A stretch of 64,000 bases of DNA from IMG/VR virus record IMGVR_UViG_3300032285_001268, positions 1 through 64,000 of that record. The stretch is one strand, 5' to 3'. This document shows positions 27,054-38,965 of the stretch, in pieces. The translations under genes and the position numbers were made by a program. Under the pieces are notes generated by a model. The model worked only from the letters and a program-made list of their open reading frames with translations, had not been told where the DNA came from and ran no database searches. Numbering within the stretch: position 1 is the stretch's first letter; the number at the start of each line of letters is the position of its first letter. The DNA is from a virus.

Positions 27054-27147
27054 ATTATACTGCCAAAATTCATATGTGTCAATTCACTTTCAAAACGTCT
27101 GTGTTCTATCTGCCACAGTTGACACTTGTATAGATCCCTAGTATAAT
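27054..27147. promoter_or_regulatory. divergent pair of perfect sigma70 promoters
   Basis: Minus: TTGACA(27082-27077)-17-TATAAT(27059-27054); plus: TTGACA(27119)-17-TATAAT(27142). Confidence 0.85.
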
Positions 27148-27171
27148 AGTGGCTAGTAAGGAGGAGCGCAG

Positions 27172-27327
27172 ATGACTGAAGCAGACTATCAAAAACTAGA
27201 AGCCTTGGCTACCCTAGAGGATGCCATTGCCCGTATCTATAACATTGAAGGCGATCGTTGGCAGATGGCCTATGATACCCTGGAAGCTGTCCTGGGTAAT
27301 CTAGCCATAGAGCGGCCCCGTGGTTGA
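27172..27327 (+). CDS. small early hypothetical protein (51 aa)
   Basis: Found by hand: GGAGCG RBS, MTEADYQKLEAL..., stop TGA overlaps the next -35. Confidence 0.65.
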   Translation: MTEADYQKLEALATLEDAIARIYNIEGDRWQMAYDTLEAVLGNLAIERPRG

Positions 27328-27383
27328 CAGGATCGCTGATCCCGTGTATACTAGAGGCTAGTTAATTAATAAGGAGCGAACTT

Positions 27384-28091
27384 ATGTTTAAATTACTATC
27401 AACAGCAAACCCTAAGATCCAAAAGGGTACCAAGATGGGCTATCTCAGCTTCATCCTGCATCTTGCTCCAGCGGACTTGTCGGGTAAGGAGACTTGCCCC
27501 AAGCGGACAGCAGGTTGTACAGCGGCCTGCCTAAATACAGCAGGGCGTGGTGGCATGTTTAAACGGGGTGAGACGACCAATGCTATCCAGAAGGCACGTA
27601 TACGCAAGACTGAGTATTTCTTCCGCGATCGTGATGCTTTCATGCTGGATTTGGCCTACGACATACAAAAGGCCATTCGTTTTGCGGCCAAGCAGGGTTT
27701 GACGCCCGTGTTCCGCTTGAATGGTACTAGTGACTTATCCTGGGAGAAGTACGAAGTACCCGTGTTCTGCACTCGTAACATCTTTGAATTGTTCCCTACA
27801 GTACAGTTCTACGACTATACCAAAGTACTTGGACGCAAGGTTGCTGACATTCCTAACTATCACCTAACGTTCAGCAAGGCAGATGGCAACGATAGCGATG
27901 TGGCTGAAGCACTACTACAGGGCATGAGCGTGGTGGCAGTCTACGACCAAATCCCAGAGGGTGTACCCAGTGCAGACGAAACTGATCTGCGCTTCCTAGA
28001 CCCTAAGGGCATCATGTTAGGGCTTAAGGCCAAGGGCCGTGCTAAGAAGGACTACAGCGGATTCGTGATCCGTATCAAGGAGGCAGCATGA
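27384..28091 (+). CDS. GP88-like phage protein (Cys-rich, radical-SAM-like fold inferred)
   Basis: CPKRTAGCTAACL, RLNGTSDLSWE, FYDYTK, YHLTFS, DLRFLDP. Confidence 0.7.
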   Translation: MFKLLSTANPKIQKGTKMGYLSFILHLAPADLSGKETCPKRTAGCTAACLNTAGRGGMFKRGETTNAIQKARIRKTEYFFRDRDAFMLDLAYDIQKAIRFAAKQGLTPVFRLNGTSDLSWEKYEVPVFCTRNIFELFPTVQFYDYTKVLGRKVADIPNYHLTFSKADGNDSDVAEALLQGMSVVAVYDQIPEGVPSADETDLRFLDPKGIMLGLKAKGRAKKDYSGFVIRIKEAA

Positions 28092-28324
28092 CACGTACAG
28101 AGATAGACAATAGTCTACAGTGGGCGGGCACTGCCTCGCTCATGACCATGTATGTGATCATGAGCTTCTTTCCCGAACTACACCCCTGGAACCTAGTGGC
28201 TGGTTGCCTGGGCGGAGTACTGTATTTCGCTTGGACTCTACGTGTGGCAAATAAGCCACAGATGATAGTCAACGCCATGGGTATAACCATTACCCTACTA
28301 GGCTTATACAAGGCCTGGGGTTGA
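28088..28324 (+). CDS. small membrane protein
   Basis: Three hydrophobic helices. Confidence 0.6.
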   Translation: MTRTEIDNSLQWAGTASLMTMYVIMSFFPELHPWNLVAGCLGGVLYFAWTLRVANKPQMIVNAMGITITLLGLYKAWG

Positions 28325-28374
28325 CTAGAACCAGCTTTGAGCATACAATATACACTTACTAACAAGGAGCGGAT

Positions 28375-28638
28375 ATGAACATATCAACCATTGAGCAGTA
28401 TGTAGAGCAAAAAAATGAATGGCGTAAGATGTTTAACCAAAAAGTGTTAAGCCTGCTCAACGCCGCGGATCGTCAGACCATTGCTTTCAGCATTGACGCA
28501 GACCTTAGCCCAGAGAACCTTACCTGCGATGGCGAACTGCCTCGCTCACAGGTGCAGGCTCGTTACAAGATGCTGACCCGTGCGGCACAGGAGTTGGCCA
28601 GCATTGATCCCAATGTGGTATTCTACGAGTTCAATTAA
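28375..28638 (+). CDS. early hypothetical protein
   Basis: Promoter plus GGAGCG RBS; DLSPENLTCDGE. Confidence 0.7.
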   Translation: MNISTIEQYVEQKNEWRKMFNQKVLSLLNAADRQTIAFSIDADLSPENLTCDGELPRSQVQARYKMLTRAAQELASIDPNVVFYEFN

Positions 28639-28724
28639 CCAGGCGTGGCCCCGCTGTTAAGCAAGGTTGACGGCGGTGGCTTTTGGTTGTATACTATAGG
28701 CTAGACAGTTAGACAAAGGAGCGA

Positions 28725-28991
28725 ATGATGTACACCGTAGAACTTTATAAACGAGATGCCCGTAAGAAGTCGGGCGAGCGTCTGTATAGTAAGACAGACT
28801 ATGACACGGATAACCTCAGCATGTTAGAGCACACGGTCAAGCATACCTATCGTGCCAGCCAGGGATTCCGCTATGAGATCCACGAGACCTATGTTAAGAA
28901 GCATAACCTAATGGGTGGGGGCGAGTTCACAGAACGCTATGACACTCCCCACTACTGTTCACCAGCATCAGAATCTTATTGGAGCATGTAA
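28725..28991 (+). CDS. early hypothetical protein
   Basis: Promoter plus GGAGCGAAT RBS. Confidence 0.7.
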   Translation: MMYTVELYKRDARKKSGERLYSKTDYDTDNLSMLEHTVKHTYRASQGFRYEIHETYVKKHNLMGGGEFTERYDTPHYCSPASESYWSM

Positions 28992-28992
28992 T

Positions 28993-29280
28993 ATGGATAT
29001 CAAACAAGTAAACTCAGCTATCATGTTTGGTGATTGGACGGACGTAGAGCTCCGTAGCATGATCGATGCGGTCAAATGGAACCGTAGCCGATTGTCAGAC
29101 CGTACCAAGGCTGCGATCTGTGTAGGCGACAATGTAGAGTTCCTGTCCACTAAGACCGGGCGCTTGACCCGTGGCTTTGTAACCAAGAAGGCCATCAAGT
29201 ATGTCACAGTTGACACGGGCATGGGCTTGTGGAAGGTGCCAGCCAGCATGCTCACAGTGGTTGATAAAGAGCTGGCCTAG
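28993..29280 (+). CDS. early hypothetical protein (SH3-like C-terminus)
   Basis: ATG 28993 after GGAG; VGDNVEF...GFVTK...VTVD. Confidence 0.6.
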   Translation: MDIKQVNSAIMFGDWTDVELRSMIDAVKWNRSRLSDRTKAAICVGDNVEFLSTKTGRLTRGFVTKKAIKYVTVDTGMGLWKVPASMLTVVDKELA

Positions 29281-29338
29281 TGGTTGACAGGGCACCCAAA
29301 GCCCTGTATAATTATGGCTTACGTGATAGGAGCGAACT

Positions 29339-29536
29339 ATGGCAAGAGTGGACGGGCAAGTGGTCAACATCGGGGACTGGGTCAGCTTCAAGAGCGACTA
29401 TGAGCAGTGTGGCAAAATTGTCAAAATCAACGGCGATCGGTTGACCCTATTCAGAGACAATGAGGGCTTTGGGGGCGACTACATTGGGGGTGAAAACTAC
29501 ACCATTGAGTTGGCCAGCGATTGTTGGATTGAATAG
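29339..29536 (+). CDS. early hypothetical protein
   Basis: Promoter plus GGAGCGAAC RBS. Confidence 0.7.
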   Translation: MARVDGQVVNIGDWVSFKSDYEQCGKIVKINGDRLTLFRDNEGFGGDYIGGENYTIELASDCWIE

Positions 29537-29598
29537 GTTGACAGGTCCGGCCCAAACTAGTATAATATAGACATACAGTAAACGATTAGGAGCGAACT

Positions 29599-29943
29599 AT
29601 GAAATTACATATCACTACGCAATACATGGAGAACTACGGTGCCCACGATTGGGACGGTACTGGTGAGTGCCCTCAGTACTGGAAGTTCAAGGGTGGCGAG
29701 GACTACTTCTACCCATTGGGTTCAGCAGGCCGCTCAGCAGAGGCCATCGAGGAGTTGGTACACCACTTCCGTAAGGACATCGAGTGGGACGACATCGGTA
29801 GCCGTCAGTATATCGTAGGCTACGGTGTAGTGGCTGACGACTTCATGACTCCGTTTGAGAAGAGCCAGTTGGAGTACGAAGGTAGCATTACCTACCCTGC
29901 ACGGGTCCTTACAATCGAAGAAGATGTTTACTACGGAGCCTGA
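29599..29943 (+). CDS. early hypothetical protein
   Basis: Promoter plus GGAGCGAAC RBS. Confidence 0.7.
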   Translation: MKLHITTQYMENYGAHDWDGTGECPQYWKFKGGEDYFYPLGSAGRSAEAIEELVHHFRKDIEWDDIGSRQYIVGYGVVADDFMTPFEKSQLEYEGSITYPARVLTIEEDVYYGA

Positions 29944-29944
29944 T

Positions 29945-30169
29945 ATGATTACGATGGAAACTAGACAGAACTACGATCAGCGTCACGGCGGCCCATTTGA
30001 TCGTGGATCCGCTGACTCGTGGTATGGCCGTCCTAGAGACCCACACTTCTATACAGGCGACACTGGCACTAGCCAACGGGTAACTGAGCTTACACCCGCT
30101 GAGGTACAGGCCTACTTGGCGGGCTATCAGTGGAACGAGCAGTTCGGCGGTAAGAAGGATTACGATTAA
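29945..30169 (+). CDS. early hypothetical protein
   Basis: ATG 29945 after GGAG; HGGPFDRGSADSWYGR. Confidence 0.6.
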   Translation: MITMETRQNYDQRHGGPFDRGSADSWYGRPRDPHFYTGDTGTSQRVTELTPAEVQAYLAGYQWNEQFGGKKDYD

Positions 30170-30285
30170 GCTCTAGTCCCCAGCCACTGGGCCCTGCAAC
30201 TCGCCTGGGTTCCTCGCTGGGGCTTTTTCACGATCAGCCTATAGAACCGACAGGTACCCTCGACGTCCACCCCCCTCTGTTCGAC
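30170..30285 (-). ncRNA. candidate small RNA, copy B (paralogue of 26940-27048)
   Basis: Own minus-strand promoter at 30292-30320; 27/33 identity to copy A core; no RBS-led ORF; ends approximate. Confidence 0.5.
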
Positions 30286-30291
30286 TATCAT

Positions 30292-30320
30292 AGTATACGA
30301 TCTTGGGCCCAAAGTGTCAA
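30292..30320 (-). promoter_or_regulatory. antisense sigma70-type promoter inside the early array
   Basis: TTGACA(30320-30315)-17-TATACT(30297-30292). Confidence 0.8.
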
Positions 30321-30421
30321 CCCCAGGGGCAGAGGTGTGGCTAAAATACAACATCATTTTGGCTTGACATTTTGGCTAGTGTGCGCTATAATAAGTTTTT
30401 TACAGCAAACAGGAGCCTACA

Positions 30422-30586
30422 ATGCAATATTTTACTGTGTATCTGCGCTACGATAACGTAGAAGATTTGTGTGCTGTTAATGCTACTAGCGCAGAGGAAG
30501 CTATTGCTAAAGCGCAAGCATACTACAATGCACACGCAGAATTTTTAGACACTACTGTAACAGTTTATAAAGCAGTAGCAAGTTGA
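30422..30586 (+). CDS. small early hypothetical protein (54 aa)
   Basis: Found by hand: promoter, AGGAG, MQYFTVYLRYDNVEDL...; stop overlaps the next -35. Confidence 0.65.
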   Translation: MQYFTVYLRYDNVEDLCAVNATSAEEAIAKAQAYYNAHAEFLDTTVTVYKAVAS

Positions 30587-30637
30587 CATTTTGGACTAAG
30601 TGCAGTATAATTAACACTTACACACACAGGAGCACAC

Positions 30638-30862
30638 ATGTTTACAAATTGCATAGCCCGCGCTAAGTTAAACTACAACAAAAAATTAAAAACATATAAA
30701 CTGCTAGTAGCATTTATTAATAACGGAGACAGCATTACGCAACGCAATGCAAGTTTTATTAGCGGAGATTTGTGCGCAGAAACTATACAAAAAGACTTAG
30801 TGCGTGTGCTACAAACAGCACAGCAAACTCTGCGCACTAACAACATACAATTACTAGACTAA
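30638..30862 (+). CDS. early hypothetical protein
   Basis: Promoter plus AGGAG. Confidence 0.65.
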   Translation: MFTNCIARAKLNYNKKLKTYKLLVAFINNGDSITQRNASFISGDLCAETIQKDLVRVLQTAQQTLRTNNIQLLD

Positions 30863-30937
30863 ACTAGTAAACTAATACATAGCGCATTTGACTTTTTGGG
30901 CTAAGTGCGCTATAATTAGTTTTTTAAGGAGCGCAAA

Positions 30938-31186
30938 ATGGGACAGTACGCAAACACAGTTAACGCATACGCAGAAGACGAAGCACGAGCACGAGTTTAC
31001 AAAACGCAAAGACGTTTGCAAAGTTGGGGACAAACAAGTTACATGTTAAATGTAACTACTAACAAGTTCCGCAACGACATAGAAAAAAAAGCAGTTAAAT
31101 TAATTGCTAAGATGGAACTTGAAAAACTTGCGCAAATGCAAAAAGAGATTGCACAGTTAAAAGCAAAACATAGCATTACAGACTAA
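30938..31186 (+). CDS. early hypothetical protein
   Basis: Promoter plus AAGGAGCG. Confidence 0.65.
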   Translation: MGQYANTVNAYAEDEARARVYKTQRRLQSWGQTSYMLNVTTNKFRNDIEKKAVKLIAKMELEKLAQMQKEIAQLKAKHSITD

Positions 31187-31260
31187 AGGGTTAATACATA
31201 GCGCACTTGACATTTTGGACTAAGTGCGCTATAATTAGTTTTTTAGCAGTAAGGAGCAGT

Positions 31261-31530
31261 ATGTTGTTTAACACAAAGCAAATACGTGCATTAGCACGTA
31301 ATGTCAGTAACGTAAGCGCAAGTTATACGGACAGGACAAATAAAAAAGACAAAACAAGCAAAAGACGTACAGTAGTATTTTGTTTTAGCAATGCACAGGA
31401 TGCGGACACTTTAGCAAACTACTTGCGAGCTACTTGTGCAAACGAAGTAACACAGACTTGTGTTGCTAGAGATTACATAACACGCACATGGGGCGGAAGT
31501 TATGTACGTGTAAAAGCAGATTTAGCATAA
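31261..31530 (+). CDS. early hypothetical protein
   Basis: ATG 31261 after AAGGAG, downstream of promoter 31207. Confidence 0.65.
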   Translation: MLFNTKQIRALARNVSNVSASYTDRTNKKDKTSKRRTVVFCFSNAQDADTLANYLRATCANEVTQTCVARDYITRTWGGSYVRVKADLA

Positions 31531-31539
31531 GGAGTAAAC

Positions 31540-31701
31540 ATGCAGACATTTGTATACAAAAAAACACAAACACATTATTTGCACATAGATGCAGAAACGC
31601 AAGAGGAAGCAGACGCTATTGCAGACACAGTTGACATATATGCGGACAATGTATATGCAACGGAACTAGACGGTTGGGAATTAACAGATGGAGAAGTATA
31701 A
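31540..31701 (+). CDS. small acidic early protein (53 aa)
   Basis: Found by hand: AAGGAG, MQTFVYKKTQTHYLHIDAETQEEADAIAD... Confidence 0.6.
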   Translation: MQTFVYKKTQTHYLHIDAETQEEADAIADTVDIYADNVYATELDGWELTDGEV

Positions 31702-31877
31702 TGACAATACAATACGTAGATGCAAAGGCGGAGATTTTTAAATTACTTGCACAAGTGGAGACACTATTGCTAGAAGCAACTTGCGAAGGCGAGCAAATAG
31801 CGGGCACACGATGGGGTGACGAGATGTTTAACACACATGCGGAACTAGTGCAAATGGTTGACTACTACATAGACTAA
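31701..31877 (+). CDS. small early hypothetical protein
   Basis: TAATG coupling to the previous ORF. Confidence 0.6.
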   Translation: MTIQYVDAKAEIFKLLAQVETLLLEATCEGEQIAGTRWGDEMFNTHAELVQMVDYYID

Positions 31878-31886
31878 GGAGCGATT

Positions 31887-32054
31887 ATGACTAAGCTATA
31901 CCAAGTCACTTACACACTAACAGTGACAGAGGAAGTAGAAGCAGATAGCAAAGCAGACGCTGAGCAGGCGTTTAGCGAACTGTTTAGCGATGCTAACGAC
32001 TTGACCTGCTTGGGCAAGTATAAAGTTAAATGCTTGGGCAAAGCAGACGATTGA
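31887..32054 (+). CDS. small early hypothetical protein (55 aa)
   Basis: Found by hand: AAGGAGCGAT, MTKLYQVTYTLTVTEEVEADSKADAE...; stop overlaps the next -35. Confidence 0.65.
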   Translation: MTKLYQVTYTLTVTEEVEADSKADAEQAFSELFSDANDLTCLGKYKVKCLGKADD

Positions 32055-32101
32055 CATTTTGAGCAAAGTATAGTATAATTGTTTTTTAAGGAGCGAAACT
32101 T

Positions 32102-32458
32102 ATGCAAGCAACACAGTTTAAAGTTAGCAAAAAGCTAACACTAGTAGGCGTTACACAAGAAGACGACACTACTTGTACAGAGTACAAGTGCAAAGTAAAA
32201 GTGCAACTAGCAGGCGACAGTATTTGGGACTGTAATTTAAAAACAGTTACAATTAAAGAGATACACATTGCAGAGACAGACTGGGGCGATGGCGACACTA
32301 ACATACACATTGCAGTTGTACACACAGGCGGTGACGACAGCTGGCGCATATACACAGACAGCGGATTTGAGGCTGCTGTTAGCGACTTGCTAGGGACAGA
32401 CGTTAGTTTTACAGAGCAGGGCATGCAAGACGACGGCTACGCGAGTATGGAGTTGTAA
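32102..32458 (+). CDS. early hypothetical protein
   Basis: Promoter plus GGAGCGAA. Confidence 0.7.
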   Translation: MQATQFKVSKKLTLVGVTQEDDTTCTEYKCKVKVQLAGDSIWDCNLKTVTIKEIHIAETDWGDGDTNIHIAVVHTGGDDSWRIYTDSGFEAAVSDLLGTDVSFTEQGMQDDGYASMEL

Positions 32459-32526
32459 TACATAGCGCACTTGACTTTTTGGGTTAAGTGCGCTATAATT
32501 AACACTTACACACAGCAGGAGCGAAT

Positions 32527-32853
32527 ATGTTTAATGCAAAAGATTTAGGCAAGCAGTTTATTAAGTTAGTGCAAGCTAAAGACACAGACTTAGTAGAAGA
32601 TATTGTTGACTACGACGGCGAGGATACTTACTTGCTAGACTGTTATGTAGACGACGGCGAAGCTACAGACTATGCTAGCATAGACGAGTTAATTGCTAAA
32701 GGCATTGACGGAATTGAAACTGTAGATACTGTAACAGTAATGGGTAGCGCAAGCGGCGACACACGCTGTTACAGCAATACTGTTACAGCAATAGTACTAG
32801 ACGATGGTACTAAGTGGATGGATGCGGCATACTACGATTTAATTTTTGCTTAA
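32527..32853 (+). CDS. acidic early hypothetical protein
   Basis: Promoter plus GGAGCGAAT. Confidence 0.7.
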   Translation: MFNAKDLGKQFIKLVQAKDTDLVEDIVDYDGEDTYLLDCYVDDGEATDYASIDELIAKGIDGIETVDTVTVMGSASGDTRCYSNTVTAIVLDDGTKWMDAAYYDLIFA

Positions 32854-32862
32854 GGAGACTGT

Positions 32863-33051
32863 ATGAGCAACATGAGCAAAGCAATAGCATTGCATAAGGC
32901 AGTGCAGATGTTAGAGGAAGTAGACGCACTAGTGCAAAAAACACTAGGGGCTAGTGACGACTGTTACGATGTGCATTGTGCGCTGGAGGACTTGCAGGAT
33001 ACACTTGCAGGTTTTGCAGAGCAGTTAGAGGAAATGCAAATAACAGAGTAA
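32863..33051 (+). CDS. small acidic early protein
   Basis: AAGGAG RBS. Confidence 0.6.
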   Translation: MSNMSKAIALHKAVQMLEEVDALVQKTLGASDDCYDVHCALEDLQDTLAGFAEQLEEMQITE

Positions 33052-33132
33052 AGTGTAGGGCTTTTGGGCAAGCTGGTTGACAGTTTGCCCAAATCGCAGT
33101 ATACTATAGGCTAAGTTAACAAGGAGCGAACA

Positions 33133-33435
33133 ATGTTAAACATCAGCAAAATCGTAAAGGTCTACAACGGCAAAGTAGGTTGCATGTGCGGGTGTGGCGG
33201 CAAGTACAGCTACACAGCTGACGGGGCTACAAACTATGGCCCAGGCTATGACGTCTCCGACATGATTAACGAGCGTAGTGTACGCATTATTACAAAAAAG
33301 ATCCTCAGCAATCCTCTTGTCAAGTTTGAAGACAATTATGCTTATGTAGAGGACCGTGCCCGTAACAAGATGCAAATGGTTGTGTTCAAAGAGCCACAAG
33401 AGGTCTACAGCCCATTTGACACTTGTAACAGCTGA
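33133..33435 (+). CDS. early hypothetical protein
   Basis: Promoter plus GGAGCGAAC; GCMCGCGG. Confidence 0.7.
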   Translation: MLNISKIVKVYNGKVGCMCGCGGKYSYTADGATNYGPGYDVSDMINERSVRIITKKILSNPLVKFEDNYAYVEDRARNKMQMVVFKEPQEVYSPFDTCNS

Positions 33436-33473
33436 CAGTATAATTAAAACTTAAACACAGCAAGGAGCGAACC

Positions 33474-33719
33474 ATGCAGGTTAAAGAGCTAATTGAAGAA
33501 CTCAAGTACATGGACCCAGATGCCGAAGTACACTTCGCCTATAACTATGGCGATCACTGGCGCACTGAAGTGGCCCCAAAGGTCAGTCGGGTGCAGTCGG
33601 GTGCAGTGGAGTTTAGTGACTACCACCGCATGGACAAGGTAGCTGAAGAGGACGAGTGCTGGGACGAAGATACTGGCGATTGGAAAGAAGACGTCCGCAG
33701 GGTTGTGATTATTGATTAA
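33474..33719 (+). CDS. early hypothetical protein
   Basis: Promoter plus GGAGCGAAC; VKELIEELKYMDPDAEV start common in small phage proteins. Confidence 0.7.
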   Translation: MQVKELIEELKYMDPDAEVHFAYNYGDHWRTEVAPKVSRVQSGAVEFSDYHRMDKVAEEDECWDEDTGDWKEDVRRVVIID

Positions 33720-33785
33720 CCCGTAGAACTGAAGGGGATTTGACAAGAGTCTCCTTTGGTGCTATAATTGAGTTAAGTTAGAAAT

Positions 33786-33961
33786 TAGGGGTTACCTACA
33801 CCGTTAGGCCCTTGGAGAGGTGGAAGCGTTCCGACGGGGACCTAGTATCCAGGGCAAGAAGGCAGACCTTCGGGCGAAGCTGGCGGGTAGAGTAGGCTGT
33901 AATGACGAAGGCAACTGACGCCCTGGAGACGGTCCTAGGCAGTTAGACCGGAGTTCCCCTA
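33786..33961 (+). ncRNA. candidate structured non-coding RNA (about 176 nt)
   Basis: Dedicated promoter at 33740-33768, no RBS/ORF; closing stem TAGGGG/CCCCTA, nested GGACC/GGTCC and TCCAGGGC/GCCCTGGA, UUCG loop. Confidence 0.6.
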
Positions 33962-34023
33962 GTTGACAACACTATCATTTGGTTGTATAATACATTTTTC
34001 AACAGTACTTAAAGGAGCGAACG

Positions 34024-34515
34024 ATGGGTACACGAAGCATGATTGCTATTCAAAATCCACATAGCAAACAAATCCGCGCAGTCTACTGCCACTGGGATGG
34101 CTACTTGGAGCACAACGGCGCTATCTTGCAGAAGCACTATGCCGCAAGCCCTAAAGTCAACAACCTTATTGCCTTAGGCGACTTGTCTAGCCTGCGCCCT
34201 GAGATTGGTGTGCAACACGCATTCAGCTCGCTTGATGTACCCAAGCAAGAGCAAGAGGCTTACGATAAAGAGCACGGCAACAGTTGCACGTTCTACGGAC
34301 GTGACAGAGGCGAGAAGGACGTGGGCTTTAAGGTGTTTGACACGCTGGCTAAGGCTTGCGATCACTACACTTGGAGCGACTACTACTACTGCTTCAAGTA
34401 CACTAAGGCCAGCGACTACACAGTTGGCGAGTGGCACTACAAGAAGAACGGCGAGCGTTGGAAGAAGCTGGCTCCTGCTATTGCTAAACTTGATCCAAAG
34501 GAGTGTGCAGAATGA
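34024..34515 (+). CDS. early hypothetical protein
   Basis: Promoter plus GGAGCGAAC; MGTRSMIAI...VYCHWDGY. Confidence 0.7.
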   Translation: MGTRSMIAIQNPHSKQIRAVYCHWDGYLEHNGAILQKHYAASPKVNNLIALGDLSSLRPEIGVQHAFSSLDVPKQEQEAYDKEHGNSCTFYGRDRGEKDVGFKVFDTLAKACDHYTWSDYYYCFKYTKASDYTVGEWHYKKNGERWKKLAPAIAKLDPKECAE

Positions 34516-34727
34516 AAAAGGTAATTGTGCGCACAGAACTATATCAGGAACTTGAGGTTCCTGATAGCTGGGATAGGTATGATGTATACGATTTCCTAGC
34601 CGAGAACGAGAGCTTCCGTGAGGCTTTCCAAGGTGTAAGTAACCAAGATCAAACAGCCCGCATCCTAGACTTGGGTGTGGTTAATGAAACAGTAACAGAG
34701 ATGGGAGAAGAAGCATATGACGACTAA
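34512..34727 (+). CDS. small acidic protein
   Basis: ATG 34512 overlaps the previous stop. Confidence 0.55.
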   Translation: MKKVIVRTELYQELEVPDSWDRYDVYDFLAENESFREAFQGVSNQDQTARILDLGVVNETVTEMGEEAYDD

Positions 34728-34896
34728 GGCCGGATATTATCGCAAGAAGGCTATGAGTGACAGCAGGTTTGCCACACTCTATGAGGACCCTACCTACGAG
34801 TTGCCCGAGGACAAAGAGTTTGACGGCCCGGGATTTATTGATGTGACAGGCTGGACAGCAGAAGAAGTGCGCCGCCTGGGTCACGCAGACGAATAA
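34717..34896 (+). CDS. small hypothetical protein (59 aa)
   Basis: Found by hand: GGAG upstream, MTTKAGYYRKKAMSDSRFATLYEDP... Confidence 0.55.
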   Translation: MTTKAGYYRKKAMSDSRFATLYEDPTYELPEDKEFDGPGFIDVTGWTAEEVRRLGHADE

Positions 34897-34980
34897 CTAG
34901 TTCGCTCCTAGTTGCCCTTGAGGCCGGCACGACCCCCTCCGAGATGGGGGTCACTTTACAGCTAGACTGTGGCTTTTTTG
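34895..34980 (+). ncRNA. 3'-UTR hairpin element carrying anti-GGAGCGAA loop
   Basis: AACTAG-TTCGCTC-CTAGTT hairpin, then GACCCCC/GGGGGTC hairpin and T-tract. Confidence 0.55.
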
Positions 34981-35067
34981 CCACACTACCAGACCAGACC
35001 CCGCTGTAGCGCGGTTGACGCCCAAGCCAAAATCCTTTATAATTACTACATAATGAAGGAGCGGGCA

Positions 35068-35208
35068 ATGAAGATCACTATCAAAATACCAAACAAAACT
35101 AGGGCACACCTAGTTCTATTTTGCAAGGACACACCCTTCAAGCAGAAGCGTGTAGAGAGCAAGATTAAATATAAACGTCAACCTAAGCACAAGGGGAAAG
35201 AGCTATGA
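35068..35208 (+). CDS. small basic protein (46 aa)
   Basis: Promoter, AAGGAGCG, K/R-rich HLVLFCKDTPFKQKRVESKIKYKRQPKHK. Confidence 0.6.
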   Translation: MKITIKIPNKTRAHLVLFCKDTPFKQKRVESKIKYKRQPKHKGKEL

Positions 35209-35453
35209 AGGGCCTAATCACCAACCAATGGGACAGGGATAACCTTAACTTCCTGCTCAATACCAAAGACAAAGATCTAAAGGATTGGCATGCACAGGCA
35301 GACGCAGACGATCTAGCCTATGCTCAGGAACTCTTGGCCGCCTACAGCCTAGAGCTGAAACTTCAGGCTGAAGAGCTCCGTATTGAGTGCGAAATGGATC
35401 TAAAGGGCGACTTTAGCCAAGCATTAGCCGTGATTGACAAGATCAAGTTTTGA
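35205..35453 (+). CDS. hypothetical protein
   Basis: ATGA coupling. Confidence 0.6.
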   Translation: MKGLITNQWDRDNLNFLLNTKDKDLKDWHAQADADDLAYAQELLAAYSLELKLQAEELRIECEMDLKGDFSQALAVIDKIKF

Positions 35454-35490
35454 TACTATAATATACACTTAAACAACAAAGGAGCGAACT

Positions 35491-35637
35491 TTGAAGACAA
35501 TGACACAGAAACTAGAGCGTGATCGCTTAAATCGGTTAAAGCGTGAGCGTAAAGCCAATCGTCAGTTTGTGCTAGGTGCAGTGATGCTGGCAACTATCTT
35601 TGTAACCCCCTTGGCCGTTGCGGCCTTACTTTCTTAA
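35491..35637 (+). CDS. small membrane peptide (48 aa, TTG start)
   Basis: Found by hand: promoter, GGAGCGAAC, basic N-half and hydrophobic C-half. Confidence 0.55.
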   Translation: MKTMTQKLERDRLNRLKRERKANRQFVLGAVMLATIFVTPLAVAALLS

Positions 35638-35652
35638 TCATAGGAGCGAACT

Positions 35653-36240
35653 ATGCCTAATTGGTGCAACAACTATCTCGAATTAACTCACGATGATCCA
35701 GCAATGATCACTCGTGCCCGTAAGGCCTTTGCAGACGGACGACTGCTGGACGAATTTGTGCCAGTGCCAGAGAGCCTACACATCGTAGCAGGTCGAGTAG
35801 GTGACGACAACGATCCCAAGCAGATTGAGCTTGAGGCACAGGAAAAGGCCAACCTTGAGACACATGGCTACGCCACTTGGTATGACTACTGCGTCAACGA
35901 GTGGGGCACCAAGTGGGATGTAGGTGGTGATGACTACAGCCCTGCAGATGAAAAAGACCCTAATCATACTCGTATGAGTTTTGATAGTGCCTGGGCACCC
36001 CCTGTGCCTGCTATGGCCAAGTTCCAGGACTTGGGCTTCCGAGTCAAGTTGATCTACTGGGAGTCGGGCATGTGCTTCGCAGGCCTGTTTGACGAGAACG
36101 GTGATGACTTCTATGAACTTGGCGGTATGACTGCTGATCAAGTGGCTGAAGAGATCAACCCAGAGATCGACGAGTGCATGTGCATCAGCGAAAGTATGCG
36201 TGAATGGGAAGAAGAAAACGCTGAAGAGGAAGAAGAATAA
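35653..36240 (+). CDS. DUF1281/YubB-like ferredoxin-fold protein
   Basis: MPNWCNN, NEWGTKWD, FDSAWAPP, YWESGMCFAG. Confidence 0.7.
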   Translation: MPNWCNNYLELTHDDPAMITRARKAFADGRLLDEFVPVPESLHIVAGRVGDDNDPKQIELEAQEKANLETHGYATWYDYCVNEWGTKWDVGGDDYSPADEKDPNHTRMSFDSAWAPPVPAMAKFQDLGFRVKLIYWESGMCFAGLFDENGDDFYELGGMTADQVAEEINPEIDECMCISESMREWEEENAEEEEE

Positions 36241-36301
36241 CGGTTGACTGCCTTACCAAAAGGCAGTACAATTAGAATTAGTAAAACAACAAGGTACAGT
36301 A

Positions 36302-36448
36302 ATGAAAACCAACAAAGAAAAGAACTTAGAACATGATGCAAGGATGCAGGCCAAGGTTAGACCAAAGCCTGTAGAGTATAATTGGGAACCATTGGATGCA
36401 GTTGTAAAGCAATGGCGCCAAAGGAGTTATCAGAATGAGCAGGCTTGA
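36302..36448 (+). CDS. small hypothetical protein (48 aa)
   Basis: Found by hand downstream of promoter 36244. Confidence 0.45.
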   Translation: MKTNKEKNLEHDARMQAKVRPKPVEYNWEPLDAVVKQWRQRSYQNEQA

Positions 36449-36716
36449 ATTCTATGCTCGTCCGTTAGTTGCCTTTGATGCACACCTAAAAGAACATCGT
36501 CAGATCTACTATCAGTTTGTCAAAACGATGAGTTGGGGTGCTAGTCCATATAGGTTTATCTGCCCAGAAGATCACGGTGGCGATTTGGTTACCATGATCC
36601 AAAGACAGATCAACGACTACTACATCCACAAAGAATTTGGCGATCGACCACCGAAACCTGAGCCTTTGGTTCGCCAAAAAAGAAAGAAAACGGTTGACAA
36701 GGGCTCAAAAAAGTAA
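36435..36716 (+). CDS. hypothetical protein
   Basis: AAGGAG RBS; ORF track. Confidence 0.6.
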   Translation: MSRLEFYARPLVAFDAHLKEHRQIYYQFVKTMSWGASPYRFICPEDHGGDLVTMIQRQINDYYIHKEFGDRPPKPEPLVRQKRKKTVDKGSKK

Positions 36717-36778
36717 TATAATTTGAACATGCTAAGAAATTGGCATTAATTTTAACACACACAGAAAGAGGTAACAAA

Positions 36779-37144
36779 ATGGCTACAGATAAAACATTTA
36801 ATGTATTTGGTGTTTCTAAACTCAATGGCGAGTACAAAGTTCGTTTCGCGAATGACGTGATGCGTATCAAGGTATTGGCCAAACATGGTCATGAAGATAT
36901 CACTCTTGTTGACTTGGAGAAGTCAGTGAGCAAGTATGAAGGTATCAAGGCTATTGCCACTATGCCAGAGTTTGCCAATGCGGCTGCTCAGAGTGCGATC
37001 GCTGAATACTTGGAAGAAAAAGCACCTAAGGCTAAGGTCTCTAAGCCTGTGGCAAAAGCCGCGAAGACTCCGGTAGCGAAGACTACCAAAGCGCCTGCGA
37101 AAGCAGTTCAGAAAGTTACTGAGAACGAAGACGCTCCTTTCTAA
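36779..37144 (+). CDS. protein with histone-H1-like K/A/P-rich tail
   Basis: ATG 36779 after AGAGG; KAPKAKVSKPVAKAAKTPVAKTTKAPAK. Confidence 0.6.
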   Translation: MATDKTFNVFGVSKLNGEYKVRFANDVMRIKVLAKHGHEDITLVDLEKSVSKYEGIKAIATMPEFANAAAQSAIAEYLEEKAPKAKVSKPVAKAAKTPVAKTTKAPAKAVQKVTENEDAPF

Positions 37145-37147
37145 TCT

Positions 37148-37330
37148 ATGTTCATTCAGTACGAAGTCTGGGGCACACTCAACGGGCATGAAGAGCTCCT
37201 TGAGTGTGTAGCAACCCTAAAAGAAGCAGAAGAGTTGGCAGAAGAAGAAAGGTTCTTTGCTGATGAGATTTGGATCCTAGAGGACACGGACGGCGACCTG
37301 AAAGAAGTTAAGCGTTACCAGGGCCTATAG
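37148..37330 (+). CDS. small acidic protein; stop codon lies inside the tRNA
   Basis: ORF track. Confidence 0.55.
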   Translation: MFIQYEVWGTLNGHEELLECVATLKEAEELAEEERFFADEIWILEDTDGDLKEVKRYQGL

Positions 37331-37397
37331 CTCAGTTGGTTAGAGCAGAGGACTCATAATCCTTTGGTCCCTGGTTCGAGTCCAGGTGGGCCCACCA
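37321..37397 (+). tRNA. tRNA with CAT anticodon, probably tRNA-Ile2 (lysidine type)
   Basis: Acceptor GGGCCTA/TGGGCCC, D-arm TAGCTCAGTTGGTTAGAGC, anticodon arm GAGGA-CTCATAA-TCCTT, T-loop GGTTCGAGTCC, encoded CCA; C4-G69 and C5-G68 favour Ile2 over elongator Met. Confidence 0.9.
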
Positions 37398-37400
37398 CTC

Positions 37401-37430
37401 AAAGGTGTTGTAGAAATACAACACCTTTTC
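37401..37430 (+). terminator. hairpin after the tRNA
   Basis: AAAGGTGTTGTA-GAAA-TACAACACCTTT followed by TCTCTT. Confidence 0.6.
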
Positions 37431-37484
37431 TCTTGACATTTTGGCTAGGCCGTGCTATACTATAGGCTAAGTTAACAAGGAGCA

Positions 37485-38965
37485 GTGATGGGTTACAGAG
37501 TTCTTAACACCGTAGACACGATGCGTGACAATTATGGAGCACGTAAAGGCCTAGAAGGTCCTTACAATTTCAACGGCAGAGTGCTTTACTATGATCCTAA
37601 GGAAGGTAAGTATTACGATCCCAGCACAGACTTCTACGTGAGTCATGACGAATATTTTCGGTTGACAGGCCTCATCTAAACCTGTATAATTATACACATA
37701 CACAGCAAGGAGCGAACCATGCAAGTACACTTTATCGACACAGGAACACAGCAAGACTATGGCTTCAAAGAAGTAGAAGTCCACAGCTTCAAAATGGATC
37801 ATGCTGATGCACCCTACGCCATCGTTAGCAACCCATTCTTTCCAGGAGACAGCCTACGGGCCGAGTATAACTTTTACAACGGTAGCCTGCAATGGACGGT
37901 TGACGTCAGTTGATTTTGGCAGTATAATTAACATATTAACAAGGAGCGAACCATGTACGATATAGTCCAAAACCCAATTCCATTCAATGGATTCTTTTAC
38001 ACACCAGAATCATTTGCCCAACTGCAAGAGCGCATCGAACAGTTGCCAGCAAAGGAACGAGCACTTGTCTACACATTCGTAACACAGGCTATGAATCTGT
38101 GCTATCGAGAAGTAGAAGACAAGATCTTAAGCCGTGAAATCTTTGCACAATAAGGAGCAGTTATGACTACAGCATTTGAAGCAGTTATCTACGCACTCTA
38201 CTACACATGGCCCATGTGGGCTTTCCTGGCCTTGCTGAGTCTAGCCCTGTTCGTAGAAGAAGGCATCAAAGCCTACAGCCTGCGCAAGATGGTTGACAAC
38301 CCCACGCTTTGGTAATATAATTAAGACTTAAACAGCAACAAGGAGCGAACCATGAAGCTAAACGAAACCCGCACCGTCCCATATGGCACCATCCAGTATG
38401 TAGAGGACGAGGACTTTGGCAAGTGCTATCTAGTGCGCCACAACTTCATCAAACGCGAGATCTTCGCTGACACAGTCAAAGAAGCCAAGCAAGAGCTGGA
38501 AGAACTGCAGAAGGAAATGTCAGAGCTGAACTCTGCTATCTCTAAGCTTCAACGCTATGGCTACAAGGTCTACAAAGAAGTTGACAGCCTGTACGCTTGA
38601 GCATATAATTAACACTTACTTAAACAACATTGGAGCGAACAATGATTACAGCAGAACAAATCCAAGCAGGCAAGACTCTAGCAGAAGCGGCTGGTCGTGC
38701 AGAGTACGCCAAATGGGGCGGTGACCGTGGTGCTTGTGGCTTTGCTTGGGTAGAGGTCTACGTGGACCGTACTAACAGCAAACAGGCCAAAGAGCTGATC
38801 AAGGCAGGCTTCCGCAAGGACTACAAACCAAAATGCTTGAGCATGTGGGATCCAGCAGGCTTGCCCGTGCAGAACATCGACATCAAAGAAGCAGGCGCTT
38901 ATGCCTATGCCAACTACCTTACAGCACTGGGCTTGCGGGCCTATGCGGGTAGCAGACTAGACTAA
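37485..38965 (+). other. six small early ORFs, most with own promoter and GGAGC(GAA) RBS
   Basis: 37485-37679, 37719-37913, 37953-38153, 38163-38315 (found by hand, hydrophobic), 38352-38600, 38642-38965. Confidence 0.7.

Follow-up and report, generated by a model that had tools for sequence, protein, structure and literature searches.

A phage early-gene block nearly devoid of pyrimidine-C dinucleotides on its sense strand

A YC-poor island in the early region

The window analyzed here is a stretch of 64,000 nucleotides, positions 1 to 64,000 of the IMG/VR virus record IMGVR_UViG_3300032285_001268 (G000; a contig of 185,262 bp with a CheckV completeness of about 50%), whose terminase is nearest to those of PA5oct-like and other jumbo myophages (53% identity). 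Within its early-gene region, on the plus strand at 30355-33087, lies an island of 2,733 nt from which the dinucleotide 5'-pyrimidine-C-3' (YC, that is, TC or CC) is almost absent. Only 11 YC were found, five TC and six CC, whereas 196 are expected from the base composition of the island itself (2000 shuffles: mean 196, standard deviation 9.6, minimum 163; Poisson P = 7e-67) and 237 at the rate of the flanking early genes (Poisson P = 6e-84).

The early region extends over about 27.1-38.6 kb. Its plus strand carries sigma-70 promoters, about 27 in all, that match the consensus perfectly or nearly so, and each precedes a small gene with a strong ribosome-binding site (RBS). Only six of these promoters (at 30364, 30583, 30888, 31207, 32051 and 32471) and their ten genes (54-118 aa, with gene 5 at 53 aa) are YC-free. 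The other promoters, about 20 in number, are ordinary in YC, and the genes that precede and succeed the island contain 6-12% YC. All the features described in this and the next paragraph are on the plus strand, and all folding energies are those of predicted folds. Upstream, the preceding early unit is closed by a YC-rich intrinsic terminator (30175-30229) found in a terminator scan, a GC hairpin of the form CCCCAGC...GCTGGGG followed by CTTTTT (-25.3 kcal/mol). The island then opens with promoter 1 (30364-30392), which has TTGACA, a 17-nt spacer and TATAAT (12/12 match) and precedes gene 1 (30422-30586), coding for an acidic protein of 54 aa that belongs to no family and has YC-free homologues in 4 loci. 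Promoter 2 (30583-30611; 12/12 match) precedes gene 2 (30638-30862; 74 aa), a member of a 23-member family mostly of intermediate YC content (median 2%). Promoter 3 (11/12) is part of a first hairpin-promoter module (30878-30916), in which a YC-free inverted repeat, ATAGCGCA / GTGCGCTAT, surrounds the -35 element and is followed by TATAAT (-19.6 kcal/mol). It precedes gene 3 (30938-31186; 82 aa), with 0.8% YC here and 3.5-4.5% in 6 homologues elsewhere.

A second hairpin-promoter module (31198-31235), with promoter 4 (12/12 match), is followed by four genes. These are gene 4 (31261-31530; 89 aa, basic), from a 10-member family whose members are all YC-free; gene 5 (31540-31701; 53 aa, acidic), from a 4-member family, again all YC-free; gene 6 (31701-31877; 58 aa), whose ATG overlaps the stop codon of gene 5 and whose 17 family members all have <3% YC; and gene 7 (31887-32054; 55 aa, acidic). 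Gene 8 (32102-32458), which we call the core gene, codes for an acidic protein of 118 aa predicted to consist of a beta-sheet plus a helix; it contains zero YC and has its own promoter, promoter 5 (32051-32079; 12/12 match), whose -35 element begins 51 nt before the ATG. A third hairpin-promoter module (32462-32499; -22.5 kcal/mol), with promoter 6 (11/12), precedes gene 9 (32527-32853), coding for a very acidic protein of 108 aa without a family, and gene 10 (32863-33051; 62 aa), from a 13-member family in which 9/13 members have <1% YC. The 3' border (33063-33105) is a predicted 13-bp hairpin (33063-33093; -30.1 kcal/mol) with the TTGACA of the next promoter in its loop. In this fold the first YC after the island (33088-33089) would lie in the paired 3' arm. 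The promoter concerned (33077-33105) opens a series of ordinary, YC-containing early genes. None of the ten island proteins showed an informative Pfam or PHROG family.

Several features of the early region were recorded alongside the island. The promoters at 27119-38609, of the form TTGACA-17-TATAAT, are mostly followed by an extended RBS, GGAGCGAA(C), so that the early regulon is unusually uniform. The three promoter modules (30878-30916, 31198-31235 and 32462-32499) share an inverted repeat of 9-12 bp, ATAGCGCAC / GTGCGCTAT, around the -35 element (-16 to -22 kcal/mol). Their stems are themselves without YC, and a T-run lies 8 nt downstream in two copies; these hairpins could be attenuators, RNase III sites or operator sites. 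Upstream of the island and directed away from it, a near-consensus promoter (TTGACA-17-TATACT) is found on the minus strand at 30292-30320, with no convincing gene behind it. A tRNA-Met gene (CAT anticodon; 37321-37397), the sole tRNA gene of the 185-kb record, lies amid the early region. An early protein of 235 aa (27384-28091) matches the Pfam family GP88 (PF17338, E = 3e-37) and phrog_1617, and was the only early protein tested with a significant Pfam match.

A recount over 30356-33087 gave the same totals, five TC and six CC, as the initial annotation of this DNA. The CC positions (30416, 30657, 30658, 31069, 31901 and 32005) and four of the TC positions (30442, 30829, 31068 and 31906) were exact in that annotation; the remaining TC, which it had placed at 31294, is at 31304. 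Its YC-free 3' part of 1,080 nt was found again as 1,083 nt, from 32006 to 33087, and the 13 YC that it had reported for 33241-33360, just beyond the island, are indeed there. The nearest YC outside the island are at 30354 upstream and 33088 downstream. Strand-specific dinucleotide odds ratios, which the same annotation had proposed as a check, are far below 1 for TC (0.04) and CC (0.07) on the plus strand. Those of GA (0.79) and GG (0.73), the dinucleotides that stand for YC on the other strand (GR), are near normal (window-wide values, 0.85 and 0.95), in agreement with its view of a strand-specific gap. GA and GG occur 179 and 107 times, respectively, in 30356-33087, and all non-YC dinucleotides are present at ordinary or raised frequency in a base composition of 36% A, 24% T, 23% G and 17% C. 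In 30451-31200, GA/GG on the coding strand is also lowered, with 14-26 per 300 nt where 27-38 are expected. No second YC-poor stretch turned up on either strand in a sliding scan that covered both the window and the full record of 185,262 bp, and the island accounts for all six of the record's longest YC-free runs. The longest GA/GG-free run in the record is 129 nt, as compared with 1,083 nt for YC, and no GA/GG-poor windows were found. Thus, the depletion is not symmetric between strands.

Recoding and conservation

The ten open reading frames (ORFs) of the island (743 codons) contain no proline codon and no TCN serine codon, all serines being encoded by AGY, as had been noted at first; proline accounts for 3.5% of the 2,595 codons of the neighboring early genes. 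Non-coding and cross-codon positions are as free of YC as coding positions, which upholds the initial proposal that the rule acts at the level of nucleotides. A codon- or tRNA-level cause is ruled out, since untranslated regions (UTRs), intergenic and cross-codon positions also obey the ban. Codon choice shows what took the place of the banned NYC codons. From the neighboring early genes to the island, the share of GCA rises from 0.31 to 0.62 and that of ACA from 0.34 to 0.61, whereas GCT (0.28 to 0.23) and ACT (0.30 to 0.31) show no rise; NYC thus gives way to NYA rather than to NYT. In addition there is a general drift to A-ending codons (AAA, 0.34 to 0.75). The T content is not raised (24.6%, as compared with 24.3% in the flanking early genes), purines make up 58.9% as compared with 55.3%, C is enriched after purines (observed/expected ratio [o/e] 1.59 for AC and 1.79 for GC), and all ten frames are intact. 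The question posed at the outset, whether YC had become YT, is therefore answered in the negative. The footprint of an APOBEC-like deaminase is not seen: neither NYT codons nor T are raised, and the frames are undamaged.

The island is not confined to this record. A scan of IMG/VR with the island promoter motif returned six contigs, all six with a YC-free block on the promoter strand; these blocks measure 0.8-2.7 kb, are 65-89% identical to that of the window and differ from it in part of their gene content. Homologues of the 118-aa core protein were found at 51 further IMG/VR loci (40-91% protein identity; genome GC 37-51%). At 41 of the 51 the core gene contains zero YC, where about 30 are expected, and carries 35-65 GA/GG. 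Under a null model in which the protein sequence is held fixed and codons are drawn from YC-normal neighbors, 887 YC are expected in 40 non-redundant core genes and 60 were observed, 32 of them in a single distant homologue, L057 (expected 29.9), which calibrates the test. When 61 non-redundant islands were pooled (53 kb), the o/e was 0.05 for TC and 0.10 for CC, and every YCN and NYC context was depleted 10-45-fold, TCA the most (45-fold) and CCT the least. In the same pool GA and GG had o/e values of 0.78 and 0.77, with 0.99 and 0.92 in the flanks.

The gene families in the neighborhood of the islands fall into two classes: a few are YC-free or strongly depleted wherever they are found, and the rest always contain 7-10% YC. 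The depleted ones are the core family, in which 47 of 54 members have <1% YC, and the families of the 58-, 62-, 89- and 53-aa proteins of the window; the 74-aa family of gene 2 is mostly intermediate. A near-complete relative, G001 (353 kb, 98% complete), has exactly one island, and in the complete 400-kb genome G006 the core homologue has 8 YC and there is no island. Thus, the trait is lineage-specific and limited to one small block per genome. An assembly artefact, a concern raised when the island was first described, is ruled out by the recurrence of the trait in >50 independent metagenome assemblies. A search for cultured relatives among 50,697 phage records found no DNA or protein match to the island, and psbA was absent from the five relatives examined. 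Among 185,579 species genomes the sole match of the core protein was L076 (JBIKUX010000066.1), a 3.1-kb contig in a Bdellovibrionota metagenome-assembled genome from a lake sample, most likely a mis-binned phage fragment. We conclude that the YC-free state is due to purifying selection, and neither to chance nor to mutation.

The core protein has an acidic, invariant C-terminal motif, W.IYTD.GF...FTEQGMQD..ASME, and 20 invariant columns. Its predicted fold (pLDDT 89) is a four-stranded sheet packed on a helix. No Pfam or PHROG family, no sequence match in the PDB and no Foldseek hit were found for it; the best VIA-align Z score, 5.4, is below the noise level of that tool, an Atlas shape search gave TM scores of about 0.5 or less and an Atlas feature search was blank. 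The core-domain family comprises 360 clusters at 50% identity and 2,751 at 90%, all metagenomic and unnamed. Of 81 domain-only representatives, 32 are proline-free, which suggests, from the protein sequences, that the YC ban may hold in a sizeable subset of the family. The domain is also present inside proteins of 200-990 aa with normal proline and no recognizable Pfam domains (P0001-P0150); ten such fused forms gave no significant Pfam domain, and P0023 gave a weak match to sigma-70 region 3 (E = 2e-4, below the cut-off). As a matter of speculation, the acidity of the core protein would make a nuclease unlikely and a binder or mimic plausible.

What the ban follows

A family of small membrane proteins allowed the effect of position to be seen within one gene family. 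The copy in the window (28088-28324) has 10.1% YC and three conserved prolines, and other copies remote from an island have 9-10% YC. Copies directly downstream of the core gene have 2.9-4.6% YC, and one copy that precedes the core gene within a shared operon (L034) has 0% YC, with every conserved proline replaced. Thus, the ban tracks the message and the position, not the gene family. A minimal island in a relative is made up of the core ORF with its 5'UTR and its own promoter, the -35 element of which lies about 55 nt ahead of the ATG. In 21 distinct promoters of this kind we counted a single YC in 735 nt, and their 5'UTRs (466 nt in all) had none. The ban then persists to the end of the coding sequence: at the 17 loci whose last YC-free gene is the core gene, the final 99 nt of the ORF contain 0 YC, as compared with about 100 expected.

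Past the stop codon the rule is relaxed. In relatives YC resumes 15-30 nt past the stop, within the stem of a hairpin that resembles a terminator; the promoter that follows often overlaps this hairpin. The minimum free energy (MFE) fold pairs 62 of the 69 YC cytosines located up to 60 nt past the stop, as compared with a background of 63% (P = 6e-7). The first YC past the stop is predicted to be paired in 19 of 20 loci. The residual YC inside the islands show a predicted pair probability of 0.70, as compared with 0.63 for cytosines preceded by a purine (RC); in the flanks the two values are 0.64 and 0.63. To judge from these predicted folds, only unpaired YC may be banned. Selection for unstructured RNA is ruled out, as the MFE per 120 nt of the island is slightly more negative than that of GC-matched flanks (residual -3.3 kcal/mol).

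One relative, L047, carries a minus-strand block that is YC-free on its own strand, next to a stretch without both YC and GR; a block on the opposite strand is expected if the rule is tied to the transcribed strand. At L047:7450-9050, beside the plus-strand island, GA/GG is absent from the plus strand, and about 500 nt there have no TC, CC, GA or GG. The block is probably a divergent or bidirectionally transcribed YC-free unit. The rule is thus strand-specific, blind to reading frame, inclusive of UTRs, sparing of predicted stems and faithful to the operon, which together indicate that a single-stranded sense nucleic acid is read, most simply the mRNA.

Candidate readers of YC and known systems

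The explanation that we favor, with a probability of roughly 45%, is escape from a YC-specific nuclease or base modifier of single-stranded RNA (ssRNA) that is already at work when infection begins. The island would correspond to immediate-early messages, predicted to be made by the host RNA polymerase, and purifying selection would keep the single-stranded parts of these messages YC-free, from the promoter region through the 5'UTR and the ORFs as far as the stop codon. Early in infection, a single hit at an unpaired YC would be enough to inactivate an mRNA. The activity responsible could be an endoribonuclease or an RNA base modifier, and either a host defense or toxin or the phage's own host-shutoff enzyme; while it acts, only YC-free messages would remain translatable. 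That RNA is the target and that one hit suffices is inferred, the latter from the way the count behaves. A new YC would result from about one in four point mutations in a sequence of this kind, and most lineages have none. Zero rather than few YC despite this mutational input indicates that even the first YC is selected against, and a count held at zero, together with a boundary at the translated unit, argues for a single-hit rather than a cooperative process. A cut or adduct between the RBS and the stop would destroy the message, and one behind the stop would matter less, which would explain a ban that is complete to the last codons and relaxed past the stop. By extension, the core protein or its neighbors might neutralize the reader, in which case the message of the antidote would have to resist the poison. 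In its boldest form, which is possible but which we hold with some doubt, the proposal posits a widespread and so far undescribed activity that inactivates ssRNA at pyrimidine-C steps, a new class of ribonuclease or modifier, with the 118-aa protein as its dedicated inhibitor.

The initial annotation had offered, as one of two options, selection to escape a host factor that recognizes YC in mRNA or single-stranded DNA (ssDNA), or GR on the template strand. The reading of YC on mRNA or ssDNA is supported and is sharpened by the extent from promoter to stop and by the sparing of stems; the enzymes then named (an RNase toxin, a deaminase, a DNA ADP-ribosyltransferase) are not separated by the present data. 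Several points weigh against an ssRNA reader. We know of no enzyme with YC specificity, and the literature searched contained no YC-specific ribonuclease. The early proteins tested and the part of the genome screened yielded no candidate reader enzyme and no informative Pfam or PHROG match. A selective pressure that has lasted through many lineages, and probably through many hosts, suits a universal factor better than a patchy defense, and with an enzyme of the phage's own the later expression of hundreds of YC-containing phage genes would need explaining. Promoter spacers, which are not transcribed from their own promoter, are YC-free as well (the 1 YC in 735 nt of the 21 promoters), so that a model based on RNA only needs read-through transcription or shared ancestry of the promoter modules to explain them. 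Finally, all the evidence on structure comes from predicted folds.

A transcript without YC could not load the termination factor Rho, and early genes would then be transcribed to their end even if ribosomes lag behind the polymerase; in a variant, the core protein might act against Rho and would then have to be encoded by a Rho-proof gene. Rho, which the initial annotation did not consider, is, to our knowledge, the only factor with exactly YC specificity, and the match extends to TC and CC alike, to untouched CT and TT, to single-stranded RNA and to the sense strand only. It is also nearly universal, as a pressure kept in many phage lineages would demand. Its primary binding clefts bind 5'-YC of single-stranded nascent RNA (PMC12360218), and there is a published precedent for an effect on composition, in which avoiding Rho was found to mold the make-up of coding strands and the use of codons, and to be an obstacle for phage genes (Dierksheide et al., Nat Microbiol 2026, PMC13323073). 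The ban in the islands is complete upstream of the core gene and partial downstream, which suggests a 5'-to-3' polarity, and wobble positions are shifted to the purine A. We nevertheless consider evasion of Rho an unlikely explanation. Rho needs several YC over roughly 60-80 nt and an isolated YC would be near neutral, yet most lineages are at zero and all prolines have been lost. YC in the last ~100 nt before a terminator should be harmless, yet none of the roughly 100 expected at the ends of the 17 core genes is present. The ban covers the ribosome-shielded ORF and eases in the naked RNA past the stop, the opposite of what Rho predicts. The modest purine excess of the island, its unchanged T and its enrichment of C after purines are unlike the published purine bias, and about 20 other early promoters and genes of this same phage are YC-normal. 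Rho therefore fits the pattern less well than a single-hit ssRNA reader.

We regard as improbable a reader of ssDNA, namely a nuclease, a cytidine deaminase or a DarT-like ADP-ribosyltransferase that hits YC on the non-template strand displaced at strong promoters or in R-loops, the target sites having been lost by selection from what would be the block with the heaviest transcription. It would impose the same strand specificity, would reach the promoter DNA from -35 to +1, which is also YC-free, and would find hairpin stems protected in displaced DNA too; moreover TCA, the most depleted trinucleotide, is the sequence context favored by a number of enzymes that act only on ssDNA (T4 endonuclease IV, APOBEC3A/B). 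However, other early units with equally consensus promoters have normal YC, promoter spacers are double-stranded, and the ban ends at the stop codon and not at the end of transcription, a boundary that should mean nothing to an enzyme acting on DNA. A gene with a damaged non-template strand can still be expressed, which makes selection indirect, known DarT motifs do not include CC, and there is no C-to-T footprint. Very improbable, in our view, is a G on the template strand, modified in a GR context by the DNA chemistry of the phage or the host (such as 7-deazaguanine placed by DpdA at GA/GGC), that slows the host polymerase, so that the genes needed first avoid GR. Such a mark would be strand-specific relative to the template, and one modified base could matter, but all other phage genes would suffer too and tolerance of YC in RNA stems makes no sense for a mark on duplex DNA. 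TGT/DpdA (PF01702) and QueC (PF06508) are absent from the G000 record, itself about 50% complete, and PF01702 is absent from five relatives, among them the 98%-complete G001, which carries the island. The other option of the initial annotation, local saturation mutagenesis of the non-template strand, in which repeated deamination would have eroded YC to YT with no selection on YC, is hardly credible. TT is over-represented (o/e 1.44) and the process would be specific for strand and context, but GCC and ACC have become GCA and ACA while GCT and ACT are not up, T is as in the flanks, the ten ORFs are intact and the core protein keeps its invariant columns, exactly zero YC is found in >40 diverged lineages, and recoding is specific to families and operons. 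Avoidance of UV photoproducts was also ruled out, as it would protect the template strand, which keeps TC and CC, and avoidance of a CRISPR protospacer-adjacent motif (PAM) or of palindromic restriction sites is ruled out by the strand asymmetry.

Returning to a YC-specific ssRNA reader, the island would be a precise mark, open to test, of a factor that recognizes 5'-YC-3' in single-stranded RNA. Identification of the reader would bring to light either an RNA-targeting enzyme not seen before, along with its inhibitor and perhaps a tool for work on RNA, or the first case of genes structurally invisible to Rho. The most critical immediate-early genes of uncultured phages could be recognized by this simple property of their sequence, and messages meant to withstand a YC-reading activity could be designed by the same rule. 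If a reader and its inhibitor exist, the immunity of the antidote's message would be written in its nucleotide sequence, at the price of a ban on proline.

Site-free messages are known to survive cleavage by MazF in the ACA-less mRNA system. Animal viruses purge dinucleotides that are read by their hosts, CpG in the case of ZAP, UpA in that of RNase L and, in papillomaviruses, TC in that of APOBEC3. Their suppression is moderate and genome-wide, whereas the depletion in the island reaches 10-25-fold, affects one locus and one strand, and has cost the proteins an amino acid. The avoidance of restriction sites resembles the island in that short words are lost under selection by a sequence-reading host enzyme; however, it concerns duplex DNA and is symmetric for palindromes, whereas the island keeps GA and GG and excludes 4 of 16 palindromic tetramers, and its unit is the transcript. 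The mRNA interferases, whether in the ACA-less system or as a MazF homologue that cleaves at U|GN (PMC13107127), provide the principle of a site-free message that is translatable while others are cut, and with single-hit logic the YC count would go to zero. Their known motifs are of 3-7 nt, none is YC, and the natural examples are not phage blocks with whole-protein recoding. An enzyme of the kind that the anatomy of the island would predict is CmdT of the anti-phage defense CmdTAC, which ADP-ribosylates the adenine of GA in ssRNA but not in double-stranded RNA and blocks translation (PMC11618068): it is anti-phage, specific for a dinucleotide and for ssRNA, and ends the translatability of the message. 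Its dinucleotide is GA, however, which is plentiful in the island mRNA (179 GA), no phage recoding against CmdT has been reported and no homologue was identified here. Together, CmdT and MazF indicate that a dinucleotide-scale specificity restricted to ssRNA is possible for anti-phage or toxin enzymes. The Rho-avoiding purine bias is likewise a sense-strand constraint that overrides the choice of codons and of some amino acids, and it has been proposed as a barrier to phage genes. It is genome-wide and statistical and concerns the overall excess of C and richness in T, whereas the island shows a near-absolute ban on two dinucleotides, in one block of 1-3 kb per genome, with T unchanged and reaching the stop. 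No YC-free phage block was described in the literature searched, so that the initial claim of novelty holds to that extent: the purging of short words read by an adversary is a known viral strategy, the logic of which the island shares, and a near-absolute ban on two dinucleotides in one early block per giant-phage genome, kept across a large uncultured clade, would be an addition to it. What sets the island apart from all the systems compared is that its ban is near-absolute, specific for strand and transcript and confined to one early block, and that it reaches into the amino-acid content of the proteins.

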